Virus record (IMG/VR): IMGVR_UViG_3300037455_000543
Coordinates: 360,164 to 424,163 of that record
Strand: one strand, 5' to 3'
Origin: a virus
Taxonomy: Duplodnaviria; Heunggongvirae; Uroviricota; Caudoviricetes
DNA length: 64,000 nucleotides
Positions 6,235 through 64,000 of this stretch are shown in pieces. The notes beneath the pieces were generated by a model, which did no database searches, had not been told where the DNA came from, and saw only the letters and a program-made list of their open reading frames with translations. Position 1 is the first letter of the stretch; each line of letters begins with the position of its first letter. A program made the position numbers and the translations under genes.

Positions 6235-6852
6235 ATGAACTTGGGAAAAGATCCATTGTGCTATTCTAAAGCATACAGGCATAAGCTAAGAGAAATCTAT
6301 AAGTCTATTATTGATTATCGCAAAGCTAATCCTTGCAAAGACCAATATTTTGAAATCCATCATATTATTCCTAAGCATATATGCAAGAAACTTGGAATTG
6401 ATATGAATTCAATTAATAATAAGGTTCAACTGTCTGTAAAAGAACATGCGTTTGTCCATATGATTCTTGACAGAACACGTGGCTTTAAAGTTATTGGTAG
6501 TAAAAGCCTTAAGCGTATTGCGGAAAACAAGATTAATGGCTATAAACAAACTGGATTGGAAAAGGTAGGAAAGCCTATTCTTACTAGTGAAGATCGCCAT
6601 GTGATTAATCTTGGCCGTAAAGAAGTGCTTGCAAAATATAAAAAGAAAATCAATGACTATATTATTACCAAAGCATCGGCAACTGACTTTTATCATGCTA
6701 TTTGTGACGTTCTCAGAAAAAAGCTTAATATTCCAAACGAAATTGAATTTAACATGTCGAAAAATATTACAGGCCATTTGAGAAATAGCATTCCTACGGC
6801 ATTAACGTTAGGTTTATCGGTAAAAACATTGCTGCGAACTGAAGTAAAATAA
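6235..6852 (+). CDS. HNH-domain protein (homing endonuclease-like)
   Basis: EIHHIIPK...NNKVQLSVKEHAFVH. Confidence 0.7.
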   Translation: MNLGKDPLCYSKAYRHKLREIYKSIIDYRKANPCKDQYFEIHHIIPKHICKKLGIDMNSINNKVQLSVKEHAFVHMILDRTRGFKVIGSKSLKRIAENKINGYKQTGLEKVGKPILTSEDRHVINLGRKEVLAKYKKKINDYIITKASATDFYHAICDVLRKKLNIPNEIEFNMSKNITGHLRNSIPTALTLGLSVKTLLRTEVK

Positions 6853-6912
6853 GATTAAAATAAAGATTGACAATTAGTCAGTCTTTTTCTATATTATAAT
6901 TTAGAGGAAAAA

Positions 6913-9594
6913 ATGAAAAAAGAATTTATTAAGACCGAGCATATTACTCTTGATGGCCATGTATTAACAGAAGATGAAAAAGCTCGTGAAGATCGAATTG
7001 ACAAGGATCAATATTGGCTTGATCGTCATGAAAAATTATGGCAAGAGGGTGTTGAAGCTAAACCTGAGCATTATGCCTTAGGTGCTGTAGAATGCGCCCG
7101 TCGTGCTGATTATTGTGAAAGACGTCATTTGTGTGGATATAAACATGATGTCATTATCAAATGGTATTGGAAGAAGGATGATGGCACGACTGAAATCGAA
7201 GAAACTGAAAATTATTTAGCAAGCACATGGAATAAAATTAATTTGTTCAGATGCGCTGCCCAATATTGGTCAAGCATAGCTCGACAGGTTCAACGTAAAG
7301 AAGAACTTGAAAATCCGTTGCACATGCATGTTGAACATAAAGATATTATTATCACTGACCCATGCTACATTGCCAAGGAATGGGATAAATTTTATGATAA
7401 ATATGTAACTCGCCCAGTTAGCCGACTTGATGTTCCAGCTGATGAAAGATGTAACGGTGAAAATATCTTGATGAGAGATACGATTTATGGTGACTGGTCT
7501 TGTCATGTATTCAATGAAAAGAAAGAGTCTATCGGTCGTTTCTGTGCGGATGCGGGTATGGTTTGTATCGCAGTCCTGGGTGAGAATCCTGATATCGATC
7601 CGGAAAAGGTAAAAGAAATTTCAAAAAAAGACTGGTGTGCTACAATTCTTAAAGATTATACTGGCGATCTTTATATCAAACGTGCACCTACTGAAGGTTC
7701 GTATGATGAAATTTACGTTGAAGGCGTCGGTTCAATCAATTTCACGTCAAGGCAGACTGGCCTGTAATGGTTGACTGAACAAATATAATATGGTAAGTAA
7801 GGTTTAATATCGGTCTTATTTTTTCTATATTAAGGATATAAAAGGAATATTAATTATGTGTGCTACACTTGAAGAGTTTAAAAAGGCTAAAAAAATTACA
7901 GATGAAGTTGAAGATAAACTGTATTCGATGGTGTCTGACTTTAACAGATTCTATCCGCATAGCCGTTCATATGAAAATATTGAATTCCGAGAGGGGCAGG
8001 ACTATGCAATTATTCATTATGAAGAATATTGCATGGGCGAAAGTGATTCTTATGATGACTGGATTATTCCCACGTCAATTATTGAAGATTATATTGCTGG
8101 TAACAAGGAAAAGGCAATGAATGCCATGCGAGAATACAGGGCGGAAGAAAAACGCAGAATCGAAGAAGAAAGAAAGCGTCGTGAGGAAGAAGCTAAAAAG
8201 CAAAGGGAACGAGAACTCGCTTTGGCCGCAGAAAGAAAAGAAAAAGCAGATTATGAGCTTTGGAAAAAGTTAAATGAAAAATACGGGAGTAAAACAAATG
8301 CCTAGACAATATTGCGTTCAGCTACTTAATCTAACAACTGGAAAAACAAGCCTGTATATTTGTAAGGCGAATAACATTTATGAAGCTCTTAAAATCAGTG
8401 GTGTAATTCCAAAAGATGCTGATGTAACAGCAGACACTAAATGGGAAACGAACTACAAGTTGGAAACATTATATTCCGAGCCGGTTGACTAAAATCAAAA
8501 TATTATTTAAACGAAGATTGACGAAAGTCAGTCTTTTTTCTATATTATAAAGGTAATCAAAAGGAGTCAATAATGTTCAATTTCTTCAAAAAGAAAACGT
8601 TTGATATTGAAAGCGTCAATGAATTAATGGCACGAAACGATAAGTTTTATTTTGATACCAATTATGATCTCGTTCGTATTAAAGGAACCTCAATTTTTGG
8701 ATCTTTGCAGGATTTAACATTTAAGTCTGTCGAAGTTGACGGAGAAGATTTCAAAGTTCAAGAAAGTATTTCCAAGGGCGGATATAAGGTTGGCGATGAA
8801 ATTTTTTGGAAAATGCCATTTACTGAAATAGAACGTGAAATGCTTGTTTATAAGATTAACGGTAAAACAAGTATTTGCGAAGAAACTATTCAAAATGCAG
8901 TCAAAAAGTATGAATATAACAAAAAGTATGTATTCAATCCGACTTTGGCGACACAGAGGAATGGTTTGAACTGGTTCTTCCTCATTTGTCTTCGTCCGAC
9001 GGATATTAATCCTTATTTTGAATTCCTTGACCAGCAAGAAGCAACAGAATATATTGTCGAATACAGAAATTATGTATTAAAGGAATTTCAAAAACGTTCG
9101 GACGATGGAAAATATCAATTCGATATGGTCGTAACTGTTGAACCGTATTTGACTTGGCTTGATCAAAATAAGGAAAAGCTCGATGTCGAAAAACATCGCA
9201 GGGAAGAAAACGAAAAATGCAAAGACATTTTTGATATGATTAGGAGAGCTTAATGAAAACGAATTTTGCAAATTTTATGGAAGCTGAACGTTATCTTAGG
9301 AAACATCTGGATCTTCCTAAGAAAGTTCGAATCAAGACAGAATATAATTTGTTTACTGTTAAGGCAAATGATAAGCATCCTGATATTCGTGCATTACGTC
9401 AATATCTCGATTTTGAATATCATGGCAAGAATGCGGGTGTTGGTGTTGTCGAACAGTATAAGCCTGAAGTAAAGAAAGGTGAATGGGTTATGACTGTTGA
9501 TGGTAATAAGCCATGGATTTTCGTGGAAACTGAAAACTTTAAGGAAATTACTGAAGAGGAATTTATTTCTAAGATTAACGGAATTCTTGAATGA
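6913..9594 (+). CDS. five hypothetical genes (6913-7767, 7856-8305, ~8298-8492, 8573-9253, 9253-9594)
   Basis: Packed ORFs; 6913 has ITDPCY...GDW...DAGMV; cassettes at ~6863, ~7796, ~8513. Confidence 0.65.
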
Positions 9595-52350: not shown

Positions 52351-52488
52351 AAAATAGGGTTTACAAAACAAAAGTAAATTACTATATTTAACAACACAAA
52401 ATGATTGACTTTCAAAGTCGATTAGCAGATTTGAAAAAAGCGAGAATTAAGAAAAAAGTTTTATATATAATATAAAACGAGGATTGAA

Positions 52489-52551
52489 ATGCAATTAGTA
52501 GTAACAACAAACGTAACACCAGTCAATAATCCAAAGGTAACTTTCGATTAG
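52489..52551 (+). CDS. leader peptide 1 MQLVVTTNVTPVNNPKVTFD
   Basis: GAGG SD; V5 T4 N3 P2; precedes terminator and Asn/Pro/Thr/Met/Val tRNAs. Confidence 0.85.
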   Translation: MQLVVTTNVTPVNNPKVTFD

Positions 52552-52577
52552 TTTGTTTCATTACTCTGATTCTAATC

Positions 52578-52612
52578 AATCCTGTATGAGACAAACTCAA
52601 ACAGGATTTTTT
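52578..52612 (+). terminator. attenuator terminator 1
   Basis: AATCCTGT..TGAG/CTCA..ACAGGATT + T-run; competitor 52550-52561 pairs with 52586-52597. Confidence 0.85.
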
Positions 52613-52626
52613 AATTCTCCTATTAT

Positions 52627-52699
52627 TGTTCCATAGCTCAGTTGGTAGAGCCCTCGACTGTTAATCGAGTTGTCCCTGGTTCGAGTCCAGGTGGAACAG
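52627..52699 (+). tRNA. tRNA-Asn(GTT)
   Basis: Cloverleaf; CTCGA-CTGTTAA-TCGAG; G73. Confidence 0.9.
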
Positions 52700-52980
52700 C
52701 TAAGGTATCGTATTATTAAATACCGGGAAGGTCGGGGCGGCGGGTAATCCGCAGCCAAAGCAGGGAATGGTAGATCCCCGATATCGTTTTGCAAAACAAA
52801 GCAAGATAGTTAACACCGACGTCAACGTGCCCTCATTGGAGTTGATCACCAGACTTGTGGCGCCAACCGGTTAATGTAGCTAAAATTCGAAAGATATAGC
52901 AAACAACGTTACTATTTTGTTAGAAACTAAAAAACGTTATGCTGGTAGTCCAGTGGTGGTGGAACCACCTAAAAAACTTG

Positions 52981-53055
52981 CGGGGTGTAGCTCAGTCTGG
53001 CTAGAGCATCTGCTTTGGGAGCAGAGGGTCGTAGGTTCGAATCCTGTCACCCCGA
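52981..53055 (+). tRNA. tRNA-Pro(TGG)
   Basis: Canonical cloverleaf. Confidence 0.95.
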
Positions 53056-53059
53056 CGAA

Positions 53060-53705
53060 CATGGTGAGGGGCGTGCTCTGTCGAAAGGCAACACGAGCAA
53101 GGAACTAAATTCTTTACCCAAGCGGAAAGTAATTTCCGCCGGAGACTGTGCTTAAGTCGATTAATAATCGATATGGCGTCGGTAAAGTTGTCAGGAATAA
53201 ATACGCCAAGAGATTGGGTACCTGACATTAGTACGTTCTGGCGGTGAGGCTCACCAGCCCTGTAGAATGGGGTTGCGACAAAACCGAGGCGTGAGCTAAG
53301 GCACGACGCGGAAATACAGGTGCTTATCTTCATCGAGATTAGCATTATGATCTGGGCAAGACCTATAGCGATAATCGTACAGTGCATGTCACGAATACAT
53401 CTACAACTTTCACCCTGTGGGCCGATAGCAATGTGACCCTCCAAGTTGCTTACTTACTTGTTCCGAAAGTAAAACTCTGGAAATATTCCGCCAGTTGTCC
53501 AAAAGGAAACATGAGTTCCAACGCGGTGTATAGAGAAATCTATGAAACTTAGGCGCAGGAGGTTCGTTACCTGGTTACGAAAGTACGGAAATAACGTAAC
53601 GCTTTGTAATTGAAGCGAATTATTTGTTAGCGAGTGTAAAATGCGATTTATAAGATCTATCGCTTACATGAGTTAATAAATTAAGTTTGACAAACACAAT
53701 TACAT
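53060..53705 (+). ncRNA. candidate large structured ncRNA (~630 nt)
   Basis: GC-richer, no credible ORF, many hairpins, between tRNAs. Confidence 0.55.
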
Positions 53706-53710
53706 TTTTT

Positions 53711-53783
53711 GCTGGTGTAGCTCAATTGGCAGAGCAGCTGATTTGTAATCAGCAGGTTGTAGGTTCGATTCCTATCACCAGCT
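53711..53783 (+). tRNA. tRNA-Thr(TGT)
   Basis: Canonical cloverleaf. Confidence 0.95.
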
Positions 53784-53918
53784 CTAATAAATACTGTTAG
53801 GCGTTATTTAGAAGCTGCAGACTCTTTATAGTGCTAAATCGGGTGTAACACGTAAGATCAGTTACAGTAAGAGCTGGTATAATCAAAGACCTCCAGTAAC
53901 AGTAAATTTTGAATTTGA

Positions 53919-53993
53919 TGCGGCCGAGTGAAACGGAAAATCATTCAAGGCTCATAACCTTCGAGATACTGGGTTCGACTCCCTGGACCGCGA
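53919..53993 (+). tRNA. tRNA-Met(CAT), initiator-like, atypical
   Basis: AAGG-CTCATAA-CCTT; weak 1:72 pair; some stem mismatches. Confidence 0.7.
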
Positions 53994-54204
53994 CTAAAAT
54001 ATACTTAAGCGCAAGTGCCTTTTAACGGACGCACCATTTTAAGGACTGAGAGCTGGGATAACGTTCGGGAATGCGTAAACGCCCTAGTTCGACAACGTAT
54101 AGAGCTAAACCTCTTGTATAGGGTAAAACCGATGTATACTACGTTTAGTGAGCGCTGAATTCACATAAGGGACGTGGTGTGAAGAGTATATCTTTTGAAT
54201 TTAT

Positions 54205-54276
54205 CGCGGGTTGATGCAGTGGTAGCAAGCAAGGCTCATAACCTTGAAGTCCCTGGTTCGAGTCCAGGACCCGCTA
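54205..54276 (+). tRNA. tRNA-fMet(CAT)
   Basis: CGCGGG start, C1xU72 mismatch, CTCATAA loop. Confidence 0.85.
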
Positions 54277-54364
54277 CGAATACGGTGAAAAGATACTAGG
54301 CGAGTATCATTTGATTAAGTTCAAATCGGGCTGTAGTCATTAGAGTCGCACCACTTAAAAATTA

Positions 54365-54423
54365 TGGCATAGGAAGTTCCTATTTTTAAAATTAAATGGG
54401 TTAATTAGTATTACTTCCCGCCA
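54365..54423 (+). ncRNA. GC-AHA-N5-UUCCUA motif copy
   Basis: TGGC ATA GGAAG TTCCTA...TA CTTCC C GCCA. Confidence 0.7.
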
Positions 54424-54514
54424 AACTTTTAAAAGCCAGTCTACGGGAAAATAAAGAGTAGACCGTTACCCAGAAGCCTGACCACGAGCTGGGACTGTAT
54501 CAAAGTGGTCATAA

Positions 54515-54590
54515 CTCTCCTTCGCCTAGCTGGTTTATGGCACCTGTCTTACAAACAGGAACAACCTTGGTTCAAATCCAAGAGGGGAGA
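54515..54590 (+). tRNA. tRNA-Val(TAC)
   Basis: CCTGT-CTTACAA-ACAGG; full cloverleaf. Confidence 0.85.
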
Positions 54591-54597
54591 TAAAAAT

Positions 54598-54710
54598 AGC
54601 ATAGGTAGTTCCTATTATCAAACGTGTAGCTCAGTGGTTAGAGCGTCGGGAGCAATCTCGGAGATCGTTGGTTCGAGTCCAATCATGTTTACCAGAAGTA
54701 CTACCCGCTA
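54598..54710 (+). ncRNA. UUCCUA motif enclosing an anticodon-less tRNA-like RNA (54620-54694)
   Basis: Acceptor, D and T arms canonical; anticodon loop replaced by GCAA tetraloop; ends ACCA. Confidence 0.75.
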
Positions 54711-54722
54711 TAAAGTTTACAT

Positions 54723-54837
54723 GCGGAAAGTAGCTCAATTGGTAGAGCAGAAGTATTATGTTACTACCCGCTACACGCAAAGGTTGTTCCTATTAATGGG
54801 GAACTTTGGGTTGTAGGTTCGAATCCTGCCTTTCCGC
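54723..54837 (+). tRNA. tRNA body (Pro/His-like) with permuted UUCCUA motif inserted in anticodon loop
   Basis: Acceptor, D and T arms intact; ~48-nt insert between GAAGT and ACTTT. Confidence 0.7.
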
Positions 54838-54843
54838 CGAAAC

Positions 54844-54930
54844 TGGCATATGAAGTTCCTATTTTTGGAAATCCTAGTATTATCTTCGGATAAGAAGGGA
54901 TAAGGTTCAAATCCTTTTTACTTCTCGCCA
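54844..54930 (+). ncRNA. UUCCUA motif copy enclosing a T-arm
   Basis: TGGC ATA TGAAG TTCCTA...AAGG-TTCAAAT-CCTT...TA CTTCT C GCCA. Confidence 0.7.
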
Positions 54931-54990
54931 AATTAAAATTTAACAAAAACGGAAAAACAAAAAACATAAATAAACAAAAGAGAAAATAAA

Positions 54991-55056
54991 ATGACTTACG
55001 TTATGAACACAAATAATACCAACCCTAATAATAACCCTGAGGTGCTACAGGATTAG
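54991..55056 (+). CDS. leader peptide 2 MTYVMNTNNTNPNNNPEVLQD
   Basis: N7 T3 P2; precedes terminator and Asn/Pro/Thr tRNAs. Confidence 0.85.
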   Translation: MTYVMNTNNTNPNNNPEVLQD

Positions 55057-55089
55057 TTTTGTTTCATAACTAGATGAATTTTTAAACTG

Positions 55090-55131
55090 AATCCTGTAAG
55101 ACCTTTGAGACTTACAGGATTTTTTATTTTT
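55090..55131 (+). terminator. attenuator terminator 2
   Basis: AATCCTGTAAG/CTTACAGGATT + T-run; competitor TACAGGATTAGTTT (55046-55059) pairs with 55084-55098. Confidence 0.9.
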
Positions 55132-55207
55132 GTTTACTAGCTTAACTGGCAGAGCGCTTCCCGTGGCCACGGGTGAGAGATATTCGGTTCGACTCCATTG
55201 TAAACAG
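55131..55207 (+). tRNA. tRNA-like RNA with Asn-type acceptor and no anticodon loop
   Basis: TGTTTAC/GTAAACA-G; arm CCCGT-GGCC-ACGGG; weak T-stem. Confidence 0.6.
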
Positions 55208-55215
55208 CTACTTAT

Positions 55216-55303
55216 TCCACGGTACTCTAACTGGTAAGAGGCCTGGCTGTTAACCAGGTGTATGGTGTAAAAACCTATGGAGGTTCGAATCCTTCCCGTG
55301 GAG
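55216..55303 (+). tRNA. tRNA-Asn(GTT) with long variable arm
   Basis: CCTGG-CTGTTAA-CCAGG; U1-A72, G73; ~20-nt variable arm. Confidence 0.85.
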
Positions 55304-55311
55304 CTAAATAT

Positions 55312-55395
55312 TGGTAGGTACCCGAGTGGTAGCAGGGGGGAGACTGTTAATCTCTTGACGAAAGTCCGCCGCAGGTTCGAATCCTGCCCTATCAG
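55312..55395 (+). tRNA. tRNA-Asn(GTT) with Tyr-like class II body
   Basis: GGAGA-CTGTTAA-TCTCT; GAC-GAAA-GTC variable arm; G73. Confidence 0.85.
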
Positions 55396-55404
55396 CTAAA
55401 ATAA

Positions 55405-55478
55405 CGGAGTGTAGCGCAGATGGTCAGCGTGTTTGCTTTGGAAGCATAAGGTCGTTGGTTCGAATCCAACCACTCCGA
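55405..55478 (+). tRNA. tRNA-Pro(TGG)
   Basis: Cloverleaf, TTTGGAA loop. Confidence 0.9.
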
Positions 55479-55486
55479 TAAATTAA

Positions 55487-55560
55487 CAGGGTGTAACTCA
55501 GTTGGTTAGAGAGCTCGCCTCGGATGCGAGGGGTCGCTGGTTCGAGTCCAGCCATCCTGA
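55487..55560 (+). tRNA. tRNA-Pro(CGG)
   Basis: CTCGC-CTCGGAT-GCGAG. Confidence 0.9.
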
Positions 55561-55653
55561 TAAAATATAAAGTGCGCAGGAGACATACTAGCCGTAGGGG
55601 CTAGAGAAGTTATATCCAGACGGAGGTCGGATAGATGGTGGAATTGCGATAAT

Positions 55654-55726
55654 CAGAATGTAGCTCAGCTGGCAGAGCGCACCGTTCGGGGCGGTGAGGT
55701 CGGAGGATCATAACCTCTCATTCTGA
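55654..55726 (+). tRNA. tRNA-Pro(CGG), atypical T-loop
   Basis: CACCG-TTCGGGG-CGGTG; T-loop ATCATAA. Confidence 0.8.
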
Positions 55727-55737
55727 CTAAAATTTTT

Positions 55738-55803
55738 GGCACAGGTCGTTCCTATGAGCTCGTAGAGCAGCAAATTGTTAATTTGAAGTATTTACGACCC
55801 GCC
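55738..55803 (+). ncRNA. UUCCUA motif enclosing D-arm-like hairpin + Asn anticodon stem-loop
   Basis: GGC ACA GGTCG TTCCTA...CAAA-TTGTTAA-TTTG...TA CGACC C GCC. Confidence 0.75.
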
Positions 55804-55806
55804 TTT

Positions 55807-55879
55807 GCTGGAGTAATTCAACTGGTAGAATAGCGGTTTAGTAATCCGCAAGTTGTAGGTTCGAGTCCTATCTCCAGCT
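55807..55879 (+). tRNA. tRNA-Thr(AGT)
   Basis: GCGGT-TTAGTAA-TCCGC; Thr-type acceptor. Confidence 0.85.
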
Positions 55880-55886
55880 CTATAAT

Positions 55887-55959
55887 GCCGGAATGGCGCA
55901 ATTGGTAGCGCAGCTCTTCCGTAATGAGATGGTTGGGTGTTCGAGTCACTCTTTCGGCG
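55887..55959 (+). tRNA. tRNA-Thr(CGT), atypical (C33)
   Basis: Loop TCCGTAA; weak anticodon stem. Confidence 0.7.
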
Positions 55960-56010
55960 TATCATTAGAAAGGATTGACAATAGTCAATTCTTTTTCTAT
56001 ATTATAAATC

Positions 56011-56613
56011 ATGATGCAATTAATAGTTATATCGAGTTTCGCTACAGCTGCAATAATTGCTGCATATTATTTCGGCATAGGTTTACTTTATAAGTATAGA
56101 GCAGGAGTATCAAAAATTCTAGCCTTTATAGTCTTTTTCTCGATTATAGGTTATAGAATGTATAGGGATTATCAAGATGAAAAGATTGTGGAATCAGCAT
56201 TGACTGAAATAACTACCGAAATAGATAATGCTGAAAAGAACATGATGTCAGATAAGGATTTTCATGAGTTCGTAGCAAAATCAATATCTCAGAAAGATGG
56301 CGTAAGTTTAAATATTATTCCGCAAATCGATACGGCAATCTTGAAAATTAATAAGATTTATCAGAATGTATTAAATGATCCGGATTTTAAGATTATGATA
56401 ACGAGCGCAAATGATTCTAAGTCACATTCAAAGAATTCGGCACATTATCGAGGACAAGCAGTAGATATAAGGATAAAGAATATTAACCATAGACATAAGA
56501 ATGAAATTATTGCAGCGATTAAGGAAATCTTAGGTGATAGGTTTTTGGTTCTCCATGAAGACAAGGGAAAACCAAATGAGCATTTGCATGTTCAGTTGAA
56601 GAACAATGGTTGA
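56011..56613 (+). CDS. membrane-anchored peptidase M15-family (endolysin-like)
   Basis: Two N-terminal TM helices; ITS...SAHYRGQAVDI...EHLHVQ zinc motifs. Confidence 0.8.
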   Translation: MMQLIVISSFATAAIIAAYYFGIGLLYKYRAGVSKILAFIVFFSIIGYRMYRDYQDEKIVESALTEITTEIDNAEKNMMSDKDFHEFVAKSISQKDGVSLNIIPQIDTAILKINKIYQNVLNDPDFKIMITSANDSKSHSKNSAHYRGQAVDIRIKNINHRHKNEIIAAIKEILGDRFLVLHEDKGKPNEHLHVQLKNNG

Positions 56614-56683
56614 TGGAAAGGGTTGACGAATGTCAGTCCTTTTTTTATATTATACGTATTAACAACAAATAACAGAGGAAAAA

Positions 56684-57586
56684 ATGAAAAAAATTATCAA
56701 CTTCTTGTTTAACTATCTCACTAAGCGTGCGCAGAAAGCAAAACCTAAAGAAAAAAATATCTATAATGCAGCAGGTAAGGTAATTTTAAATTTCCATAAT
56801 CTTATCAATCCAGCTATAACTACATATGAATATGATGAGGAAGGCCGTGAGATTTCAAATAAGTACATGTATAATGGTCATTTAAGTTCCATGACCAAGG
56901 GTGAAGTTATGGAAGACGGCCGGTTTAAAGAAACACGTATTACTTTCCCTGATAAGTCTAATAAACTTGAAGAAAAAGAAGTCGTTGTTTATTATACTTC
57001 TCCTGATAGGTCTACTCTTTATGATGAAAATTATCAGACTGTTCGAATGGAAGAAGTTGAAAATGATGAAAATGGTCGTGCTATTAAAAATGAAACGCGG
57101 TTGTATGATGACGGTAAGCTTCGTGCAACAGAAGTTCATCACTACCAATATGACGAACGTGGAAATCGAACTAAGATCGATGGTAAGACTACTGAAGCTG
57201 ATGACAGCATTAAATATATTTCTTCCTCCGAATATAATTATGATGAAAATAATTTAATGGTTCATAGAATTGAAACATTCAAAGCTATGACTAAAGACCA
57301 CATCTCTGATGATGAAACTCAATATCATTGTCAATATGATGAACAAGGTCGTGAAATTAGATGTTTAACTTATGAATGGGACCGTATTCGTGCAAGGTCT
57401 GACAGGTCTTGTCGTGATCATTTCTATTTCGGTGATGATGAAATTGAAGTATATAATCACATTACTTTGAATTTCATGATTACTACTTATGTTAAGAAAG
57501 TAACTAGGTCTGATGGTTCTAGGGTTGAAACTGAATGGTATTTGCCTAACTGGTTTGGTAAACTGCTGGTTTGGTGCTTACGTTAA
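56684..57586 (+). CDS. YD-repeat-like protein
   Basis: Repeated YEYDEEGR / YQYDERGN / YNYDENN / QYDEQGR. Confidence 0.7.
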   Translation: MKKIINFLFNYLTKRAQKAKPKEKNIYNAAGKVILNFHNLINPAITTYEYDEEGREISNKYMYNGHLSSMTKGEVMEDGRFKETRITFPDKSNKLEEKEVVVYYTSPDRSTLYDENYQTVRMEEVENDENGRAIKNETRLYDDGKLRATEVHHYQYDERGNRTKIDGKTTEADDSIKYISSSEYNYDENNLMVHRIETFKAMTKDHISDDETQYHCQYDEQGREIRCLTYEWDRIRARSDRSCRDHFYFGDDEIEVYNHITLNFMITTYVKKVTRSDGSRVETEWYLPNWFGKLLVWCLR

Positions 57587-57604
57587 TTTAAAAAGGAATA
57601 TAAT

Positions 57605-59738
57605 ATGACATACGAAGAATTAGTCAGTGATGAACGTTATGGTAAAATCTTGAAGCGTTGCCAAGAATTACCTATTGGAAAAGTTCTTGCATCTAATATC
57701 GATGATGCTTGGCCAGATTTGCCTGAAGAACTGCGCGAAGTACATGATGCTTATTACAATCCTAATGAACATTATTATGACTCTATTATCGATGTTATCG
57801 ATGACTATTTCTTGTATGTTGAAGAAGATATTACAGAAGAAAGTAAGAATAAAGTCCTCGATTATGCAATGAATCTTAAGGATATTAATCTTGTCTTCTT
57901 TGATGAATCTACGAAGGAATAAATTATGAATTATAATCTTTCAAGACTTCCGGGAACATACGAATTTGACCGGGAACAATTCGGCTTCAAGATAAATTCA
58001 AAGGTTTACAATGCACAAGAATACAGTTCTATTACGAACTGTTTTAGAGTTGTAGATATTAAGAAGAAAGACAAGTATATTGAAGCAGTGGATGTTATTG
58101 AAAATGGTAAAATGCATTCTGATAAGGATGACAAGTATTTTCATAAATGTGCAGACTATATGGTTAATTCGCCATTATATTATGATACTACGATTGGACT
58201 TTATAAGCCTACCCAGAATTATATTCATCTTATGACAAAGCTTGTTTTTAGAAAGATGATTATTGCATACCTTAAGAAAGAAGAAGATGTAGAAGTAGTT
58301 GAAAAATTGACAAATGAAAAACAGTTTAAAACTACATTTGTAATTAAGAATACTGAAGTTTTTAATGACCTTCATGAATATTTCTATGACTGGTATGTTA
58401 ATAAGACTTGTTCATATGAAGATTTTTTGAATAAAAATATAAGCAAGATTGGAAAAACCAATTATTTGATGCCTAGCACTGATAAGTATAAGATTGATCC
58501 TAATCATCCTGTAGAATTTTCAAATATAGCAGACGGACTTGATTGTGCAGATGTATATACTGCTTATCTTAATTTAATTAATCGTATTAAACAAATCTAT
58601 AATCAAATTGAATGGAAAGAACAAGAAAAGAATAAAAAGTTCAAAGCTGTAGTAATTTTAACTGTTTAAGGAAATAATTATGCCAAGATATGCGAAGAAA
58701 GGATGTACAAGAGCAGATATTATTGAAAAGATGCTTGACCAGCTTAAAGCAGATGGCGGGTATGATGAGGATATGGATGAAACCGACTCTGAACAAGTAA
58801 TTCAGCAGTGGCTTTATAATTGTGTTGCATATAGTGACATGAATCCTCAGATAGAAAAAGACTTGTCAAAGCTCGAATTTGATTGGGAAAATTCAGAAGA
58901 AGATTTTGAAAGTCAAAAATATGGAAAGCTTCCGGATGGAACATCGATTATCTGGTGTTTTGCAGGTGGAGATTGGGAGTTCCCTATTCATTTTGCCGTT
59001 TATATTGACGATAAGGACCATCTGAGAGCTTATATGCCGTTAGACGGTAATGTATATTGTCCAAAGTGTAAATGTGCTTACGGCTCATGCGAGGACGAAG
59101 AACATGAGCCTGAGGAAGAGCCTACGCCAGATTGGGAAAAGATGTATGCTGCGGCATGCAAACGAATTGAAACACGATAAGGTATAAAATATGAAATGTG
59201 CGATTTGTCAAGATCGATATGATACATTAAGTTGTCGTATTACAATGAGTAATGATAATCAAAGGCGTGATCCACAATATGATATGATTGTGTGCGAGAA
59301 CTGTTATTATAAGATTCTTGAAAAAATTATATTGATGGACCCAATAAATAAACGCTTAAATAAAGAAGAACACGTATGATGTCAACAATAAATACAGTTG
59401 TATTAATTTTAAGTATAATTGATATTCTGATTTTTTTATTTGCTCTTTTTAATTTCTTCTGTGCATTTTTCTGCAAAGGCGCAGATCGATTTGGGGTAAT
59501 TTTTCTCGGTATAGTAGCTACAATTTCCGCAATTGCTGGTTATGTAAGATTGCCAGACAAAGATGAACGTGTAGCATTATTTATGCAGATGAAGCCAAAA
59601 TGTGAGCATGAAACAGTTAAATGTTTAGAAGCAAAAGCAAGATGGTATAAAGACTCAATAGAATATAATATACGAGATACTACAGAAATTATAGATTCTA
59701 TTAAACAGGTTATAGATAAATATAAAACTGAGAAATAG
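57605..59738 (+). CDS. five hypothetical genes
   Basis: Coupled ORFs with SD. Confidence 0.6.
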
Positions 59739-59776
59739 GGTTTACAAAAGTAAAACAATTTACTATATTTAACATC

Positions 59777-59837
59777 GTTAAAGCAAAAAATGTTCCTATG
59801 ATGATATTTGCAAAATAGTTTTACATTTCGCTTTAAC
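59777..59837 (+). ncRNA. UUCCUA motif copy with TAT-TTGCAAA-ATA anticodon-like loop
   Basis: GTTAAAGC AAA AAATG TTCCTA...TA CATTT C GCTTTAAC directly after a promoter. Confidence 0.7.
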
Positions 59838-59842
59838 ACATC

Positions 59843-59953
59843 GGGGAAATAGCTCAGTGGTAGAGCAACGGTATTACGTTACGTAGTGATGCATATAACG
59901 TTCCTATTTCCATTTCAAGGCGTGTGTCGTAGGTTCGAGTCCTACTTTCCCCA
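59843..59953 (+). tRNA. tRNA body with permuted UUCCUA motif inserted in anticodon loop
   Basis: Perfect acceptor/D/T arms; insert TA CGTTA C GTA-GTGA-TGC ATA TAACG TTCCTA. Confidence 0.75.
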
Positions 59954-60067
59954 CTAAAAAATATTTTAAAAAGGGGTTGACAAACCAAAAACTTTTTACT
60001 ATATTTAACAACGTAAAATAACAAAAAACAGGAAAAATTTTTTATATATAATATAAAGGTAACGAAA

Positions 60068-60181
60068 ATGACTATGAACGTATTTGAACATGAATTTTTT
60101 GCAGCAGAACGTGCCGCAGCTGAATTCGCAGCTGCAGCGTTTGAAGCATTTTGTTCAGATACAGTGCATAGGATTAGGTAG
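60068..60181 (+). CDS. leader peptide 3 MTMNVFEHEFFAAERAAAEFAAAAFEAFCSDTVHRIR
   Basis: A10 F6 E5; precedes terminator and Glu/Ala/Phe tRNAs. Confidence 0.9.
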   Translation: MTMNVFEHEFFAAERAAAEFAAAAFEAFCSDTVHRIR

Positions 60182-60206
60182 TTAACCTAAATAAGTTTGA
60201 AAAAAC

Positions 60207-60241
60207 GGTTCCTGTGCACAAAGCGCAGGAACTTTTCTTTT
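60207..60241 (+). terminator. attenuator terminator 3
   Basis: GGTTCCTGTGC/GCGCAGGAACT + T-run; competitor GTGCATAGGA (60164-60173) pairs with 60210-60219. Confidence 0.9.
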
Positions 60242-60292
60242 ATACTTTGCTGGTAGTCCAGTAGTGGAGACACCACTTAAAAAACAACATTT

Positions 60293-60365
60293 GCTCCGTT
60301 CGGCCAGCGGTTCAAGCCAACCGACTTTCTATCGGTTAACCCCAGTTCGAATCTGGGACGGAGTA
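60293..60365 (+). tRNA. tRNA-Glu(TTC)
   Basis: ACCGA-CTTTCTA-TCGGT. Confidence 0.85.
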
Positions 60366-60375
60366 CTAAAAATTT

Positions 60376-60447
60376 GGGTCATTAGTATAATGGTAGTATC
60401 TCTGATTTGCACTCAGAGGGCATCGGTTCGAATCCGATATGTATCCA
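60376..60447 (+). tRNA. tRNA-Ala(TGC), bulged acceptor
   Basis: TCTGA-TTTGCAC-TCAGA; G3.U70. Confidence 0.8.
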
Positions 60448-60456
60448 CGAAAATTT

Positions 60457-60529
60457 GGGACTGTAGCTCAGTAGGTAGAGCGTTGGCCTGAAGAGCCAAG
60501 CGTCGTAGGTTCGATTCCTACCGGTCCCG
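60457..60529 (+). tRNA. tRNA-Phe(GAA)
   Basis: TTGGC-CTGAAGA-GCCAA. Confidence 0.9.
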
Positions 60530-60537
60530 CTAAATAT

Positions 60538-60611
60538 GGGCTTGTGGCGCAATTTGGTAGCGCAGTAGCTTTGCAAGCTAAAGGTTACGGGATCGTTCCC
60601 CGTCAGGTCCA
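60538..60611 (+). tRNA. tRNA-Ala(TGC)
   Basis: TAGC-TTTGCAA-GCTA; G3.U70. Confidence 0.85.
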
Positions 60612-60620
60612 CTACATTAT

Positions 60621-60693
60621 GCCTCGGCATCCAATCGTGGGAATGGACGGGACTGAAAATCCCAGAAATCCGGTTCGACTCCGGAACCTGGCA
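60621..60693 (+). tRNA. tRNA-Phe(GAA), atypical acceptor
   Basis: GGGA-CTGAAAA-TCCC; good T-arm, poor acceptor pairing. Confidence 0.65.
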
Positions 60694-60704
60694 CTAAACA
60701 TTAT

Positions 60705-60777
60705 GGGCTCGCATGATCCAAGGAGGCGACCGGTCCTTGCAAGACTAGTGTGGTGAGTTCGATTCTCATCGGGTCCA
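60705..60777 (+). tRNA. tRNA-Ala(TGC), atypical D-arm
   Basis: GGTC-CTTGCAA-GACT; G3.U70. Confidence 0.8.
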
Positions 60778-60789
60778 CTAAAATTTTTC

Positions 60790-60863
60790 GGCGCTGTCGA
60801 ATAACTGGTTCAGTTCACCGGCCTTTCAAGTCGGAAATTCGGGTTCGAGTCCCGACAGCGCTA
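60790..60863 (+). tRNA. tRNA-Glu(TTC)
   Basis: CCGGC-CTTTCAA-GTCGG. Confidence 0.9.
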
Positions 60864-60874
60864 CTAAAATATAT

Positions 60875-60947
60875 GGGTTCGCATGATCCAAGGAGGCGAG
60901 CTGGCTTTGCAAGCCGGCTGAGGTGGATTCGATTTCCACCGGATCCA
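60875..60947 (+). tRNA. tRNA-Ala(TGC), atypical D-arm
   Basis: CTGGC-TTTGCAA-GCCGG; G3.U70; D region identical to 60705 copy. Confidence 0.8.
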
Positions 60948-61114
60948 CGAAAGTCTACGGGTGGTGCCATTACTGTAGGCAAAGCATAGAAATATGCTGG
61001 TGATGAAGGAACAATACAACATAGGTTTAAATGCGCCTTGAGTATCAAGACCTAAAATTGGCTGAGAATCACGACGAAGTTTTGTGTCTTCGTAGGAATA
61101 AAAAACACATTTAT

Positions 61115-61188
61115 GGCTCTATCGTCTACGCTGGTTAGGACGCTAGGTTTTCAACCTGGTAAATTTGGTTCGACACCAAATAGGGCTA
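61115..61188 (+). tRNA. tRNA-Glu(TTC)
   Basis: CTAGG-TTTTCAA-CCTGG. Confidence 0.9.
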
Positions 61189-61193
61189 CTAAT

Positions 61194-61269
61194 GGGGGCT
61201 ATGGTTTAATTACCGCTCTTGGGCATAGTGATTTCCTACTTTTAATTGGTTCGAATCCAATTGCCTCCA
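61194..61269 (+). ncRNA. Ala-type acceptor+T-arm minihelix fused to permuted UUCCUA motif
   Basis: GGGGGC/GCCTCC-A with G3.U70; AATTGG-TTCGAAT-CCAATT; TA ATTAC C GC..GC ATA GTGAT TTCCTA. Confidence 0.7.
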
Positions 61270-61367
61270 CTAAAAATCTTGAGGGTCTAAAGTGAAGCCT
61301 GCTTAGACACGTATCAAAGAGATGATAAAAGACTGGTTGGATTCCAGTTGGATCCTTAAGAAATCAT

Positions 61368-61440
61368 GGTTCTATCGTCTAGTGGCCAAGGACAGTCGGT
61401 TCTCAGCCGCCTTACTTCAGTTCGAATCTGAATAGAACTA
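61368..61440 (+). tRNA. tRNA-Glu(CTC)
   Basis: CGG-TTCTCAG-CCG; Glu-type D arm. Confidence 0.8.
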
Positions 61441-61464
61441 CTATTCCATTAAAGGAAGTATTAT

Positions 61465-61794
61465 ATGATAACAGTGACACAAATTAACGATTTAAGAAAA
61501 GAGACTCAGGTTAGCATGCTTCTTTGTAAGCAAGCTCTTGAAGCAACAGGTGGTGATTTCGATGCTGCAAAAAAGTGGCTTCGTGAACAAGGTAAAGAAG
61601 TTGCTGGGGATTCATCTGCTTTTGGATTCACATTGATTAAAAATGGACAAGTTTCTGAACAGAGTACAGATAATAAGTTCACTTATTCCGACGGCCATAC
61701 AAGTATAGATATTCGCAATTATGGAGGTTCTACACCTTATACCATATGGGGCGGAATAACTGGACAGATAGTCCTTAATCCCGTAAAAGTATAA
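61465..61794 (+). CDS. protein with EF-Ts N-terminal (UBA-like) domain
   Basis: ITVTQINDLRKETQVSMLLCKQALEATGGDFDAAKKWLREQG. Confidence 0.8.
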   Translation: MITVTQINDLRKETQVSMLLCKQALEATGGDFDAAKKWLREQGKEVAGDSSAFGFTLIKNGQVSEQSTDNKFTYSDGHTSIDIRNYGGSTPYTIWGGITGQIVLNPVKV

Positions 61795-61869
61795 TATATA
61801 ATTAATTCTATTAAAAAGGGTTGACAAATGTCAACCTTTTTCTATATTATATAAAAAATATCATAAAGG

Positions 61870-62406
61870 ATGGTTAGACGCAGAATGATTAAACCATGTG
61901 ATTTTATACGTTGTTGTAAAAAGGTTTTTGGCGAGGCAAATTGTACATTTACAAATACGGTAGGAACGTCAGAACCATATTATATAACTTGTATTGTAGA
62001 GAATAAGGAAGTTGCACATTTAGCTGTATATAGTAATATTTTGTCATCTTTATGCCGTGTATACATAGATAATTGTGAAAATATTGTAAATTATAAAATT
62101 ACATTATATTATTATCTTTTAAAAGCAAATAAGGCATTAAAGTCAGTTCGACAAAAATTATTTAAAATTTATAGGACTATTGATTCTGAATTTCCAGATG
62201 AAAATTTAAATGATACTGTGAAATTAACAATTCAATATCTTACTAATGTTGAATTTGAGACAGAAGAAAAAGTTCAAAAATTATTTAAAGATTTATTTGA
62301 TAGCACATGTCACAACAATCCTAAAATTAGAGAAAAACTTATTTTAGATATGTTCGAATTTTATGCTAATATGGTAAAGATTAATAAGATTAAAGAAGTT
62401 GAATAA
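61870..62406 (+). CDS. hypothetical protein
   Basis: ORF behind hairpin-promoter at ~61815-61848. Confidence 0.6.
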   Translation: MVRRRMIKPCDFIRCCKKVFGEANCTFTNTVGTSEPYYITCIVENKEVAHLAVYSNILSSLCRVYIDNCENIVNYKITLYYYLLKANKALKSVRQKLFKIYRTIDSEFPDENLNDTVKLTIQYLTNVEFETEEKVQKLFKDLFDSTCHNNPKIREKLILDMFEFYANMVKINKIKEVE

Positions 62407-62407
62407 T

Positions 62408-62440
62408 AAAAAAACCAGGTCATTAACCTGGTTTTATTTT
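62408..62440. terminator. bidirectional intrinsic terminator
   Basis: AAAACCAGGT/ACCTGGTTTT between convergent genes. Confidence 0.8.
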
Positions 62441-62454
62441 TAAATTCAATTTAA

Positions 62455-62790
62455 TTAATAAAACTCATCTACTGTTTTATCTGCAAGTTTATTTTGAACA
62501 CAGGCATCAGTCGTGCACTTAGCAAACTCAATACCATCTTCGTATACAATATCTGCCGTTTTTATGCTAGTATTATATTTTATAGCAAGGTCATTAGGCA
62601 ATTCTAAATTTTTATAACCATTGATAAAGAGTAGACGAAAATCATTATAATCGCTATCATCCCAATATTTATAATTACGGTCCCAAAGTTCATCAAAAAT
62701 GTCTTGCGGCGTATATGTAAAACCTCTGGTTTCGTTTATAACTTGATATCCATATTTATTAAGTATTTTTTTGGCTTCATTTAAATTCAT
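62455..62790 (-). CDS. hypothetical late-expressed protein
   Basis: AAGGAG SD and TATAAATA (minus strand 62816-62823), the T4 late promoter consensus. Confidence 0.75.
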   Translation of the reverse strand: MNLNEAKKILNKYGYQVINETRGFTYTPQDIFDELWDRNYKYWDDSDYNDFRLLFINGYKNLELPNDLAIKYNTSIKTADIVYEDGIEFAKCTTDACVQNKLADKTVDEFY

Positions 62791-62938
62791 TTGGTGTTCT
62801 CCTTAAATTATATATTATTTATAAAAAATTAATTTAAGGGGTTTACAAAAAGAAAATAAATTACTATATTTAACATCGTTAAAACAAAAAACAAAAACAG
62901 GAAAAAATTTTTTATATATAATATAAAGGTTAAGAAAA

Positions 62939-63040
62939 ATGACTAAGTTTGTAGTTGACACTCATGATTGCAAGACTCGCCGCGACGGACGAGGTTTCGG
63001 CAAGCATGATAAGGATCGTTACCTACACAGGGTCATCTAG
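62939..63040 (+). CDS. leader peptide 4 MTKFVVDTHDCKTRRDGRGFGKHDKDRYLHRVI
   Basis: D5 R5 K4 G3 H3; precedes terminator and Asp/Arg/Lys/Gly tRNAs. Confidence 0.85.
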   Translation: MTKFVVDTHDCKTRRDGRGFGKHDKDRYLHRVI

Positions 63041-63065
63041 TATTAAACTGTATAAAGTTTTAAAG

Positions 63066-63103
63066 AATGATTCCTGTGTAAAAACGGGAATCATTTTTTA
63101 TTT
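63066..63103 (+). terminator. attenuator terminator 4
   Basis: AATGATTCCTGT/ACGGGAATCATT + T-run; competitor TACACAGGGTCAT (63024-63036) pairs with 63067-63080. Confidence 0.85.
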
Positions 63104-63177
63104 GGTCTCATTGCCTAGTGGTCTAAGGCGCTGGTCTGTCTAACCAGTTTTCGTGAGTTCGAATCTCACTGGGATCG
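63104..63177 (+). tRNA. tRNA-Asp(GTC)
   Basis: CTGGT-CTGTCTA-ACCAG; G73. Confidence 0.85.
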
Positions 63178-63188
63178 CTACAAACAAA

Positions 63189-63251
63189 ATAGCATAAGAA
63201 GTTCCTATTAAAAAATACAGACTGCAAATCCGTTAATATACTTCTCGCTAT
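63189..63251 (+). ncRNA. UUCCUA motif copy with Cys-type (CTGCAAA) anticodon loop
   Basis: ATAGC ATA AGAAG TTCCTA...ACAGA-CTGCAAA-TCCGT...TA CTTCT C GCTAT. Confidence 0.7.
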
Positions 63252-63255
63252 ACTT

Positions 63256-63331
63256 GGGGCCGTAGCTCAATTTTGGTTAGAGCACCGGACTGTCACTTCG
63301 GAGGTTGAGGGTTCAAGTCCCTTCGGTCCCG
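63256..63331 (+). tRNA. tRNA-Asp(GTC)
   Basis: CCGGA-CTGTCAC-TTCGG. Confidence 0.9.
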
Positions 63332-63339
63332 TTAAATAT

Positions 63340-63419
63340 ACACCAGTAGCCGAGCCTGACTACGAATCAGGTACACGTAACTGGAGCTGAAAATGCAGGT
63401 TCGAACCCTGTCTGGTGTA
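63340..63419 (+). tRNA. tRNA-Arg(ACG) with rearranged D region
   Basis: Perfect acceptor, CCTGA-CTACGAA-TCAGG and T-arm; only 8 nt before anticodon arm, 23 nt after. Confidence 0.7.
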
Positions 63420-63430
63420 CTAAAAAATAT

Positions 63431-63485
63431 GCGGTGGGAGTTTTACTAATTTCTCGTGTCCGACACCGGGAAGATAAAAAATTAG
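63431..63485 (+). ncRNA. repeated pseudoknot element, copy 1
   Basis: GCGGTG GGAG TTTT ACTAAT TTCTC GTGTCCGACACCGGG..ATAAAAA ATTAG. Confidence 0.6.
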
Positions 63486-63568
63486 ATTCGCCAGCTCAGC
63501 GAATTCAAACAAATGAGTTTCTGGAGTTTGTAGGTAGCTTCTGTCCAAAACCAAAAACCTTCGCCTAT

Positions 63569-63643
63569 GCCTCACTAACTCAATTTGGTTAGAGTACCTG
63601 CCTCTTAAGCAGGGAGTTCAAGGTTCAAGTCCTTGGTGGGGTA
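63569..63643 (+). tRNA. tRNA-Lys(CTT)
   Basis: CCTGC-CTCTTAA-GCAGG. Confidence 0.9.
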
Positions 63644-63647
63644 CTAT

Positions 63648-63704
63648 GCGGTGAGAGTTTTGCTGGCTTCTCGTGTCCGACACCGGGCAGATAAAAAACC
63701 AGCA
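63648..63704 (+). ncRNA. repeated pseudoknot element, copy 2
   Basis: Same core with covarying TGCTGG/CCAGCA. Confidence 0.6.
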
Positions 63705-63709
63705 TTTAT

Positions 63710-63783
63710 GCGGTAGTAGCTCAACTGGTAGAGCACCGGATTGCCATTTCGGAGGTTTGTGGGTTCGAGACCCATCTACCGCT
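63710..63783 (+). tRNA. tRNA-Gly(GCC)
   Basis: CCGGA-TTGCCAT-TTCGG; U73. Confidence 0.9.
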
Positions 63784-63792
63784 TTAAAATTT

Positions 63793-63865
63793 GGATCTAT
63801 ATGTCAATGGTTCAGACGAGGAAACTCTTAATTTCCGGATTCCCGTTCGACTCGGGATAGGTCCA
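63793..63865 (+). tRNA. tRNA-Lys(CTT)
   Basis: GGAAA-CTCTTAA-TTTCC. Confidence 0.85.
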
Positions 63866-63876
63866 CTAAAATATAA

Positions 63877-63947
63877 GCACCTATGGTGTACAAGTAGCAA
63901 GTCGCATTGCCTGTGCGAAGGAGACGGGGCAGTACCGTCTAGGTGCT
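63877..63947 (+). tRNA. tRNA-Gly(GCC), atypical T-loop
   Basis: TCGCA-TTGCCTG-TGCGA; T-loop GGCAGTA; U73. Confidence 0.75.
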
Positions 63948-63956
63948 CTAAAAATT

Positions 63957-64000
63957 GCCTTATTGTTGTATTGGCTTAGCAAGCGATCCTTCCAAGTTCG
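63957..64000 (+). tRNA. tRNA-Gly(TCC), cut by window end
   Basis: CGATC-CTTCCAA-GTTCG. Confidence 0.6.

Follow-up and report, generated by a model that had tools for sequence, protein, structure and literature searches.

The window analysed here, a 64,000-nucleotide (64-kb) stretch of DNA, is the final part of a 424,163-bp circular virus record (G000); positions are those of the window unless they carry the prefix G000:C1. Towards its end lie four transfer RNA (tRNA) clusters, each headed by a short leader open reading frame (ORF) of 20-37 codons and an intrinsic terminator. A first-pass annotation made from the sequence alone had described these clusters, and its coordinates and hairpins were borne out. 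Its count of four holds for the window, but the genome carries seven such leader/terminator/tRNA-block units, three of them outside the window. The best explanation of the units is ribosome-mediated transcription attenuation that acts as negative feedback on tRNA supply, a reading to which a probability of roughly 0.88 is assigned.

Leaders, terminators and tRNA blocks

The features of the seven units are given below, with leader lengths in amino acids (aa).

52360..52388, + strand: unit 1 sigma70-type promoter (-35 TTTACA, 17 nt, -10 TATATT)
52466..52476, + strand: AT-rich motif just 5' of the Shine-Dalgarno (SD) sequence, common to leaders 1, 3, 4, 5 and 6
52489..52551, + strand: leader 1, 20 aa, with Val (mostly GTA), Thr, Asn and Pro; 12-14 of 19 codons cognate, p ~1e-5
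52550..52561, + strand: unit 1 antiterminator strand, 12 bp with the inner stem/loop of the terminator; -13.8 kcal/mol, shuffle p 0.008
52578..52612, + strand: unit 1 intrinsic terminator
52627..54590, + strand: tRNA block 1, Asn(GTT), Pro(TGG), Thr(TGT), Met(CAT) x2, Val(TAC), with non-coding inserts
54965..54972, + strand: near-match to a T4-type late promoter, 5' of leader 2
54991..55056, + strand: leader 2, 21 aa, Asn x7, Thr x3, Pro x2; p 5e-4 to 3e-5
55039..55062, + strand: unit 2 antiterminator strand; about -20 kcal/mol, p 0.002
55090..55125, + strand: unit 2 intrinsic terminator
55131..55960, + strand: tRNA block 2, a tRNA-like gene (4-nt loop), Asn(GTT) x2, Pro(TGG), Pro(CGG) x2, Thr(AGT) and a gene at 55886
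59977..60005, + strand: unit 3 sigma70-type promoter, 11/12 match
60068..60181, + strand: leader 3, 37 aa, Ala x10, Phe x6, Glu x5; p 7e-7 to 4e-8
60164..60173, + strand: unit 3 antiterminator strand, 10 bp; -18.1 kcal/mol, p 0.0007
60207..60244, + strand: unit 3 intrinsic terminator
60293..61441, + strand: tRNA block 3, Glu(TTC) x3, Ala(TGC) x4, Phe(GAA) x2, Glu(CTC) and two tRNA-like genes
62842..62870, + strand: unit 4 sigma70-type promoter
62939..63040, + strand: leader 4, 33 aa, Asp, Lys only as AAG, Arg mostly CGN, Gly, His; p 2e-6
63024..63038, + strand: unit 4 antiterminator strand; about -17 kcal/mol, p 0.001-0.002
63061..63103, + strand: unit 4 intrinsic terminator
63104..64000, + strand: window part of tRNA block 4, Asp(GTC) x2, Arg(ACG), Lys(CTT) x2, Gly(GCC) and a likely second Gly(GCC) at 63875 (by eye)
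G000:C1:10787-10873, + strand: leader 5, Leu/Ser/Trp; block with Trp, six Leu and Ser(GCT)
G000:C1:12774-12866, + strand: leader 6, Ser/Tyr/Cys/Ile/Gln/Met; block with tRNAs for the same amino acids
G000:C1:325873-325929, - strand: leader 7, ATA/AGA/AAA/CAA; block with Ile(TAT), Arg(TCT), Lys(TTT) and Gln(TTG)

A short ORF of 18-37 codons lies between promoter and first gene in 7/7 units, and SD-like purines precede it in 6/7. In the window units the order is sigma70-type promoter (not in unit 2), AT-rich motif, ORF of 20-37 codons, spacer of 25-36 nt, U-tailed hairpin and tRNAs, with 12-60 nt between the hairpin and the first tRNA or tRNA-like gene. The terminators before the first regulated gene have hairpins of -12.7 to -17.7 kcal/mol followed by U tracts. 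Sigma70-type promoters of the same form as that of unit 1 precede units 3-7, and the AT-rich motif of leaders 1, 3, 4, 5 and 6 is a possible second promoter. No sigma70 promoter was found upstream of leader 2, so read-through from unit 1 may additionally supply unit 2. The T4-type late promoter TATAAATA is commoner before core genes (46/126 versus 23/217). In block 2 the gene at 55886, called Tyr by ARAGORN, is read as Thr(CGT) by its loop register and acceptor stem.

Each of the seven leaders matches its own block when compared with genome codon usage (p 5e-4 to 7e-10), and among the 5040 permutations of seven leaders over seven blocks the true one scores highest. The earlier statement that leader composition mirrors the downstream tRNAs therefore stands, although its list for unit 4 lacked His and Gly(TCC): block 4 crosses the circular junction to include Gly(TCC) and His(GTG) at G000:C1:84-239, and three His codons occur in leader 4. 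Matching leaders had been predicted for units 5-7 before inspection and were present at 3/3 of the tRNA blocks outside the window. ARAGORN at a low threshold added further tRNAs that fit the rule (a second Phe, more Ala, Met and Arg).

Where the tRNAs of one amino acid are divided between blocks, the synonymous codons divide with them. Ser codons are AGY in unit 5 (AGY/TCN 5/0) and TCN in unit 6 (0/7), and Lys codons are only AAG in unit 4 and only AAA in unit 7 (4/0 versus 0/2). The corresponding splits were 4/1 versus 0/3 for Arg (CGN versus AGA), 4/0 versus 0/3 for Ile (ATT versus ATA) and 3/0 versus 0/2 for Gln (CAG versus CAA), and all six Leu codons occur in leader 5. The match exists only in the ORF frame and exceeds that of base shuffles (p 0.0002; 0.012 for unit 7). 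Being frame-specific and resolved at the level of synonymous codons, it points to decoding speed rather than peptide function. The control codons are enriched for what the operon supplies, as in an attenuator, and the control zones of the seven leaders together hold 49 of the 61 sense codons and all 20 amino acids. Each leader reads as an OR-gate for a whole block of three to six amino acids and not for a single tRNA.

The genome has 35% GC and a 127-bp terminal overlap, and a T4-type Gp23 capsid, terminase and UvsX mark it as a T4-like phage. It is a giant rumen phage; the runs containing the window region are from bovine and sheep gut. IMG/VR holds many relatives with 90-99% capsid identity; a close cultured relative was not found, the top cultured capsid match reaching 31-33%. 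The host is probably Fibrobacter, because a phage-borne GH10 glycoside hydrolase (G000:C1:36670-38454) is 73% identical to Fibrobacter genes.

The unit layout was present in every related phage examined. It had been anticipated that leader codons would co-vary with tRNA content in relatives, and the Gln, Cys and Ile codons do follow tRNAs that have moved. Gln(CTG) lies in block 6 in G000 and G006, in block 5 in G001 and in block 7 in G002, and CAG peaks in the leader above it each time. The Cys tRNA is in block 6 or 5 and Ile(GAT) in block 6 or 3, depending on the genome, and their codons move along. On the strength of five Ile codons in its unit-3 leader, G006 was expected to hold Ile(GAT) genes overlooked by ARAGORN, and two of them were located. 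Over four genomes, 101 of 131 anticodon classes had their codon peak in their own leader, compared with a permuted mean of 19 and maximum of 62; as these genomes are kin, the relocations are taken as the informative part of the count. Eight further units from new contigs agree with the codon-tRNA match. A more distant phage (capsid 70%) has one block of 17 tRNAs behind a 37-codon leader with nearly all of those amino acids. Matched leaders also occur in giant contigs of much lower GC (G009, G010) and in the public records LR745206 and LR756501 (635 kb and 735 kb), with p down to 2e-6. None of the 40 tRNA loci of a Fibrobacter genome carried a leader-terminator-tRNA unit, and none was detected, among ATG-start leaders, in the fetched tRNA arrays of four cultured, tRNA-rich phages (XacN1, CM1, a Pakpunavirus and the T5-like Ceto).

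Alternative folds of leader and terminator

In units 1-6 a strand at the leader end (segment 2) is complementary to the terminator, with -13.8 to -19.7 kcal/mol and shuffle p of 0.0007-0.008. For the four window units this complementarity of the leader 3' end or stop had been reported from the letters and was confirmed at -14 to -20 kcal/mol (p 0.0007-0.008). The added claim of different switch sequences in each copy does not hold throughout: a CCTG/CAGG core is common to units 2-4, which cross-pair, and units 1 and 2 are paralogs of each other. The pairing strand overlaps the last codons in units 2-6 and starts at or just after the stop in units 1 and 7. In unit 1 it begins at the stop codon, extends downstream and pairs with the inner stem of the terminator, and it is identical in the relative G006.

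Among 46 distinct units, the own duplex averaged -15.6 kcal/mol compared with -8.9 kcal/mol for cross-type pairs. Between relatives, a G-C/A-U swap affects the 2:3 as well as the 3:4 helix of unit 5, unit 4 has one A-U/G-C compensatory pair in 2:3, and in units 6 and 7 pairing is kept by unrelated sequences. A scan of the whole genome for short-ORF/terminator pairs with a strong duplex returned tRNA leaders almost exclusively.

The ribosome was modelled as a mask on the RNA in folding calculations. With the ribosome in the control zone, the first arm of the terminator was sequestered at 0.70-0.87, and with the ribosome at the stop at 0.08-0.24 (units 1-6); for unit 7 the value at the stop was 0.52. 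By this computation the antiterminator of units 1-6 is exclusive with the terminator, free at a stall and covered at the leader end. The proposal that a ribosome at the stop masks the antiterminator strand agrees with the model at the leader end, but masking already begins 4-9 codons before the stop in units 2-6. Matched residues made up 101 of 133 positions where the ribosome leaves segment 2 free and 14 of 47 beyond (Fisher p 4e-8).

The relatives L309 (4287-5766) and L316 (2318-3798) carry a gene for a 445-aa alanyl-tRNA synthetase (AlaRS; PF01411, N-terminal part only), preceded by a 19-codon leader with four consecutive Ala codons and a terminator of the unit-3 type. The modelled folds of this leader are 1:2 without a ribosome, 2:3 when stalled on Ala and the terminator with the ribosome at the stop. 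An AlaRS behind a pheST-type layout suggests that the signal sensed is usable aminoacyl-tRNA. AlaRS or a PF00587-type synthetase was not found in G000.

Probable attenuation and its alternatives

The leader-peptide attenuator architecture proposed in the first-pass annotation passed every sequence test that was run. Layout, codon match, exclusive folds, zoning and co-evolution come from sequence and computation; leader translation, its coupling, kinetic antitermination and the physiological trigger are what we infer. Host RNA polymerase, suggested by the sigma70-type promoters, would transcribe the short leader with a ribosome translating behind it. When the leader is read fast, the ribosome at the last codons or stop would cover segment 2, the terminator would fold and transcription would end before the tRNAs. 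When a usable aminoacyl-tRNA is scarce, the ribosome would wait in the control zone, segment 2 would pair with the emerging first arm of the terminator and the tRNA block would be transcribed. The tRNAs of the block would then read the leader codons and turn the switch off again.

Several observations weigh against this reading. Equilibrium favours the terminator in 6/7 full-length models, even with a stalled ribosome, so that in the model antitermination must be kinetic and rest on the order of folding. The 1:2 protective fold at the decision point is clear only for unit 5 and the AlaRS leader; the pause/protector hairpin is partly predicted in unit 1 and not predicted in units 2, 3, 4, 6 and 7. 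Lacking a consistent protector fold, several units may, with low confidence, default to ON if leader translation fails altogether. Unit 7 has the geometry of the switch, but its duplex (-9.8 kcal/mol, shuffle p 0.11) is not significant alone, the duplexes of its homologs being stronger. Part of the zoning contrast follows of necessity from the need of the last codons to pair, and the control zones have no GAG or CCG for Glu(CTC) and Pro(CGG). The relatives represent a handful of lineages, so the tracked tRNA moves amount to few independent events. In L119 an Ile/Val-type leader precedes a block that has neither Ile nor Val tRNAs, and some tRNA blocks have no leader. Codon 9 of the unit-6 leader in G002/G003 is an in-frame TAA in each of the two assemblies (L160:3300-3395, L295); the block behind this leader may be constitutive or rewired via an overlapping ORF. 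The RNA data are contigs, which cannot show ends, strand or level and are silent on termination. One RNA contig bridges leader 1, terminator and tRNA-Asn without mismatch; DNA carry-over is possible, and the contig is not used as support.

What the attenuator responds to is graded lower than attenuation itself. Somewhat short of even odds is given to a broad version, in which the panel is a genome-wide, isoacceptor-resolving surveillance array. It would let giant phages detect, during infection, the loss of any host tRNA class, whether to a nuclease, to modification by a toxin or to decay of host tRNA, and turn on the matching rescue block only, as a portable module retuned by codon changes as tRNA genes move and also grafted onto synthetase genes.

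A narrower trigger, compatible with supply feedback, is inducible counter-defence, in which the same attenuator senses toxin cleavage or modification of host tRNAs (PrrC/RloC, PARIS or VapC type) and provides resistant tRNAs in their place. That phage tRNAs can counteract defences based on tRNA cleavage is known (PMC10264068; PMC11464382), the leader-block match is at isoacceptor level, several very different gene bodies exist per anticodon, and 23 of 46 phage anticodon loops differ from those of one Fibrobacter genome. The other 23 loops are identical to the host's, however, and this comparison of 46 loops with one Fibrobacter genome gave no clear sign of nuclease evasion. Coverage of all 20 amino acids with up to six per block is also coarse for single-target nucleases, and the AlaRS gene behind the same kind of leader suggests that charging capacity is involved as well. 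Counter-defence as the specific trigger is held to be rather unlikely. General supply feedback accounts for the findings no less well than an alarm specific to nucleases, since all 20 amino acids are sensed and half of the anticodon loops are the host's; the pooled blocks and the AlaRS unit also fit general supply control.

Considerably less probable is an amino-acid starvation sensor as in biosynthetic operons, with extra tRNA helping the phage to compete for the remaining amino acid. Classical leaders respond to amino-acid limitation (PMC3082878), and as the mechanism cannot separate uncharged from missing tRNA, starvation should induce the units as well. An amino-acid shortage is not cured by more tRNA, however, and synonymous codons are separated by the block that holds the isoacceptor, with leaders following tRNA moves.

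Nascent-peptide arrest (TnaC/ErmCL type) or direct RNA sensing (T-box, riboswitch) driving the same terminator switch is very improbable. Leader C-termini are conserved within a type and several leaders fold strongly, but the conserved C-terminal codons are the antiterminator strand itself, and no Rfam T-box, leader or riboswitch matched. Arrest-peptide leaders such as TnaC or ErmCL have a conserved peptide motif and are indifferent to codon choice; the units do not qualify as such, given that their control zones vary with tRNA content and their synonymous codons go with the anticodons.

The least credible alternative is that there is no switch and the leaders are independent genes for small proteins, followed by fixed terminators, their composition incidental or serving peptide function and the tRNAs arising from leak-through or own promoters; terminators do dominate at equilibrium, leaders 3 and 4 are called as proteins by gene callers on many contigs and RNA contigs bridge leader 1, its terminator and tRNA-Asn, but this leaves unexplained the synonymous-codon matching, the codon tracking of moved tRNAs, the conserved and compensating 2:3 pairing and the fixed 24-38 nt spacing, and the gap of 9-22 nt between terminator and first tRNA in most units has no room for a promoter.

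Neighbouring features and known systems

Several tRNA-shaped genes lie in or beside the blocks. Those at 54620, 55131 and 61279 have a 4-nt or broken anticodon loop, and similar genes occur just before unit 4 in relatives; genes of this kind without a normal anticodon loop are possible decoys. A two-strand repeat module with a TTCCTA core (54365-54930, 59843-59953 and 63190-63250; G000:C1:12547 and 13503) surrounds the tRNA-like gene at 54620 and is permuted within the anticodon arm of the tRNA-like genes 54724 and 59843. Two tRNA-Asn genes of block 2 (55216-55396) have long variable arms. Anticodons with A34 occur as Thr(AGT) at 55807 and as Ser(AGA), Pro(AGG), Ala(AGC) and Ile(AAT) in relatives, and none was present among the 40 host loci sampled. 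By eye, a tRNA-Asn of G006 is interrupted by an apparent group I intron (L164:2680-3100) and a tRNA-Ile(TAT) of G001 has a 25-nt insert in its anticodon loop (L156:3600-3690).

Block 1 contains about 500 nt of structured non-coding sequence at 53060-53620 (z -2.3, no Rfam match), which varies among relatives and is a candidate large non-coding RNA. An RNA contig over it had a depth of 308, compared with 3-14 for the other contigs of that run. Terminator hairpins double as the -35 box of the next promoter at 55967-55996, 56615-56644 and 61814-61841, a frequent motif genome-wide. Directly 3' of block 3, at 61465-61794, a 109-aa protein with an EF-Ts N-terminal-like domain (below the Pfam cut-off) is encoded and kept in relatives. 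The phage has a transfer-messenger RNA (tmRNA) at G000:C1:123310-123660. Two ORFs between blocks 4 and 5 (G000:C1:2627-3150 and 6643-7000) resemble, by eye, an HD-type (p)ppGpp hydrolase and a Pth2 peptidyl-tRNA hydrolase, and Pfam families of both were found near unit 4 in relatives. The tmRNA and these ORFs may form a translation-support region.

A candidate eighth attenuator at G000:C1:116827-116960 consists of a 24-codon Ser-rich ORF, an alternative fold of -21 kcal/mol and a terminator. It precedes protein genes, one of them nicotinamidase-like (by eye), and its leader was not found in five relatives.

The multivalent enterobacterial leaders thrL, ilvL, trpL and hisL of amino-acid operons have control codons and a 2:3 antiterminator that competes with a 3:4 terminator, and stalling leads to read-through. 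The pheL attenuator likewise combines control codons in a leader ORF with competing 2:3 and 3:4 folds and read-through upon stalling (PMC3082878). The phage units share the leader ORF, the control codons and the 2:3 versus 3:4 folds with all five. They differ in that the output is tRNA genes, so that the product is the sensed molecule, and in that the panel has seven members covering all 20 amino acids at isoacceptor resolution. No Rfam leader matched and the 1:2 protector is not consistently predicted in the phage units. They work like the Trp, His, Thr, Leu and Phe leaders of Rfam but are not members, having no match there and tRNAs as regulated genes in place of biosynthetic or synthetase genes.

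The pheM-pheST operon of E. coli has a leader attenuator of an aminoacyl-tRNA synthetase, which responds to the supply of charged tRNA and increases decoding capacity. The AlaRS unit of L309 and L316 has the same layout, whereas the modules of G000 head tRNA blocks. T-box riboswitches (RF00230) carry a terminator/antiterminator switch set by tRNA status (PMC11404447). Their marks are a stem I with a specifier loop and a T-box bulge. A T-box binds tRNA directly and without translation, whereas the phage units have an ORF with an in-frame codon match; RF00230 gave no match at E<=1. In Anabaena PCC 7120 a supernumerary tRNA array (L-array, trn operon) is induced by impaired translation (PMC8421152). 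The mechanism put forward there is a promoter-binding repressor, with no mention of attenuation or of a leader; in contrast to the phage panel, Anabaena has one global switch that is not codon-matched.

Work on T5 tRNA-Lys against PARIS and on anticodon-loop variants describes phage tRNAs that replace depleted host tRNAs, without mention of attenuation (PMC11464382, PMC10264068), and the huge-phage paper reporting a 735-kb genome never mentions attenuation or leaders (PMC7162821). The earlier remark that such control is not known to have been described for tRNA genes or phages agrees with the search, in which no published report of attenuation of tRNA genes was found, including in huge-phage, jumbo-phage, PARIS and anticodon-loop papers, with subscription literature mostly outside its reach.

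Why phages carry tRNAs, for codon compensation or to replace depleted host tRNA, is a long-standing question, and a sensor that fires on slow decoding implies that phage tRNAs are an on-demand supply. The question also becomes testable: each 150-nt leader would report which tRNA class runs short, and when, during infection, and the leaders could serve research as compact codon-specific sensors. Compared with the known systems, the proposed mechanism, attenuation, is known and its self-referential target, tRNA genes, is new, which would extend textbook attenuation to the self-regulation of tRNA genes by a regulatory code that co-evolves with gene order.

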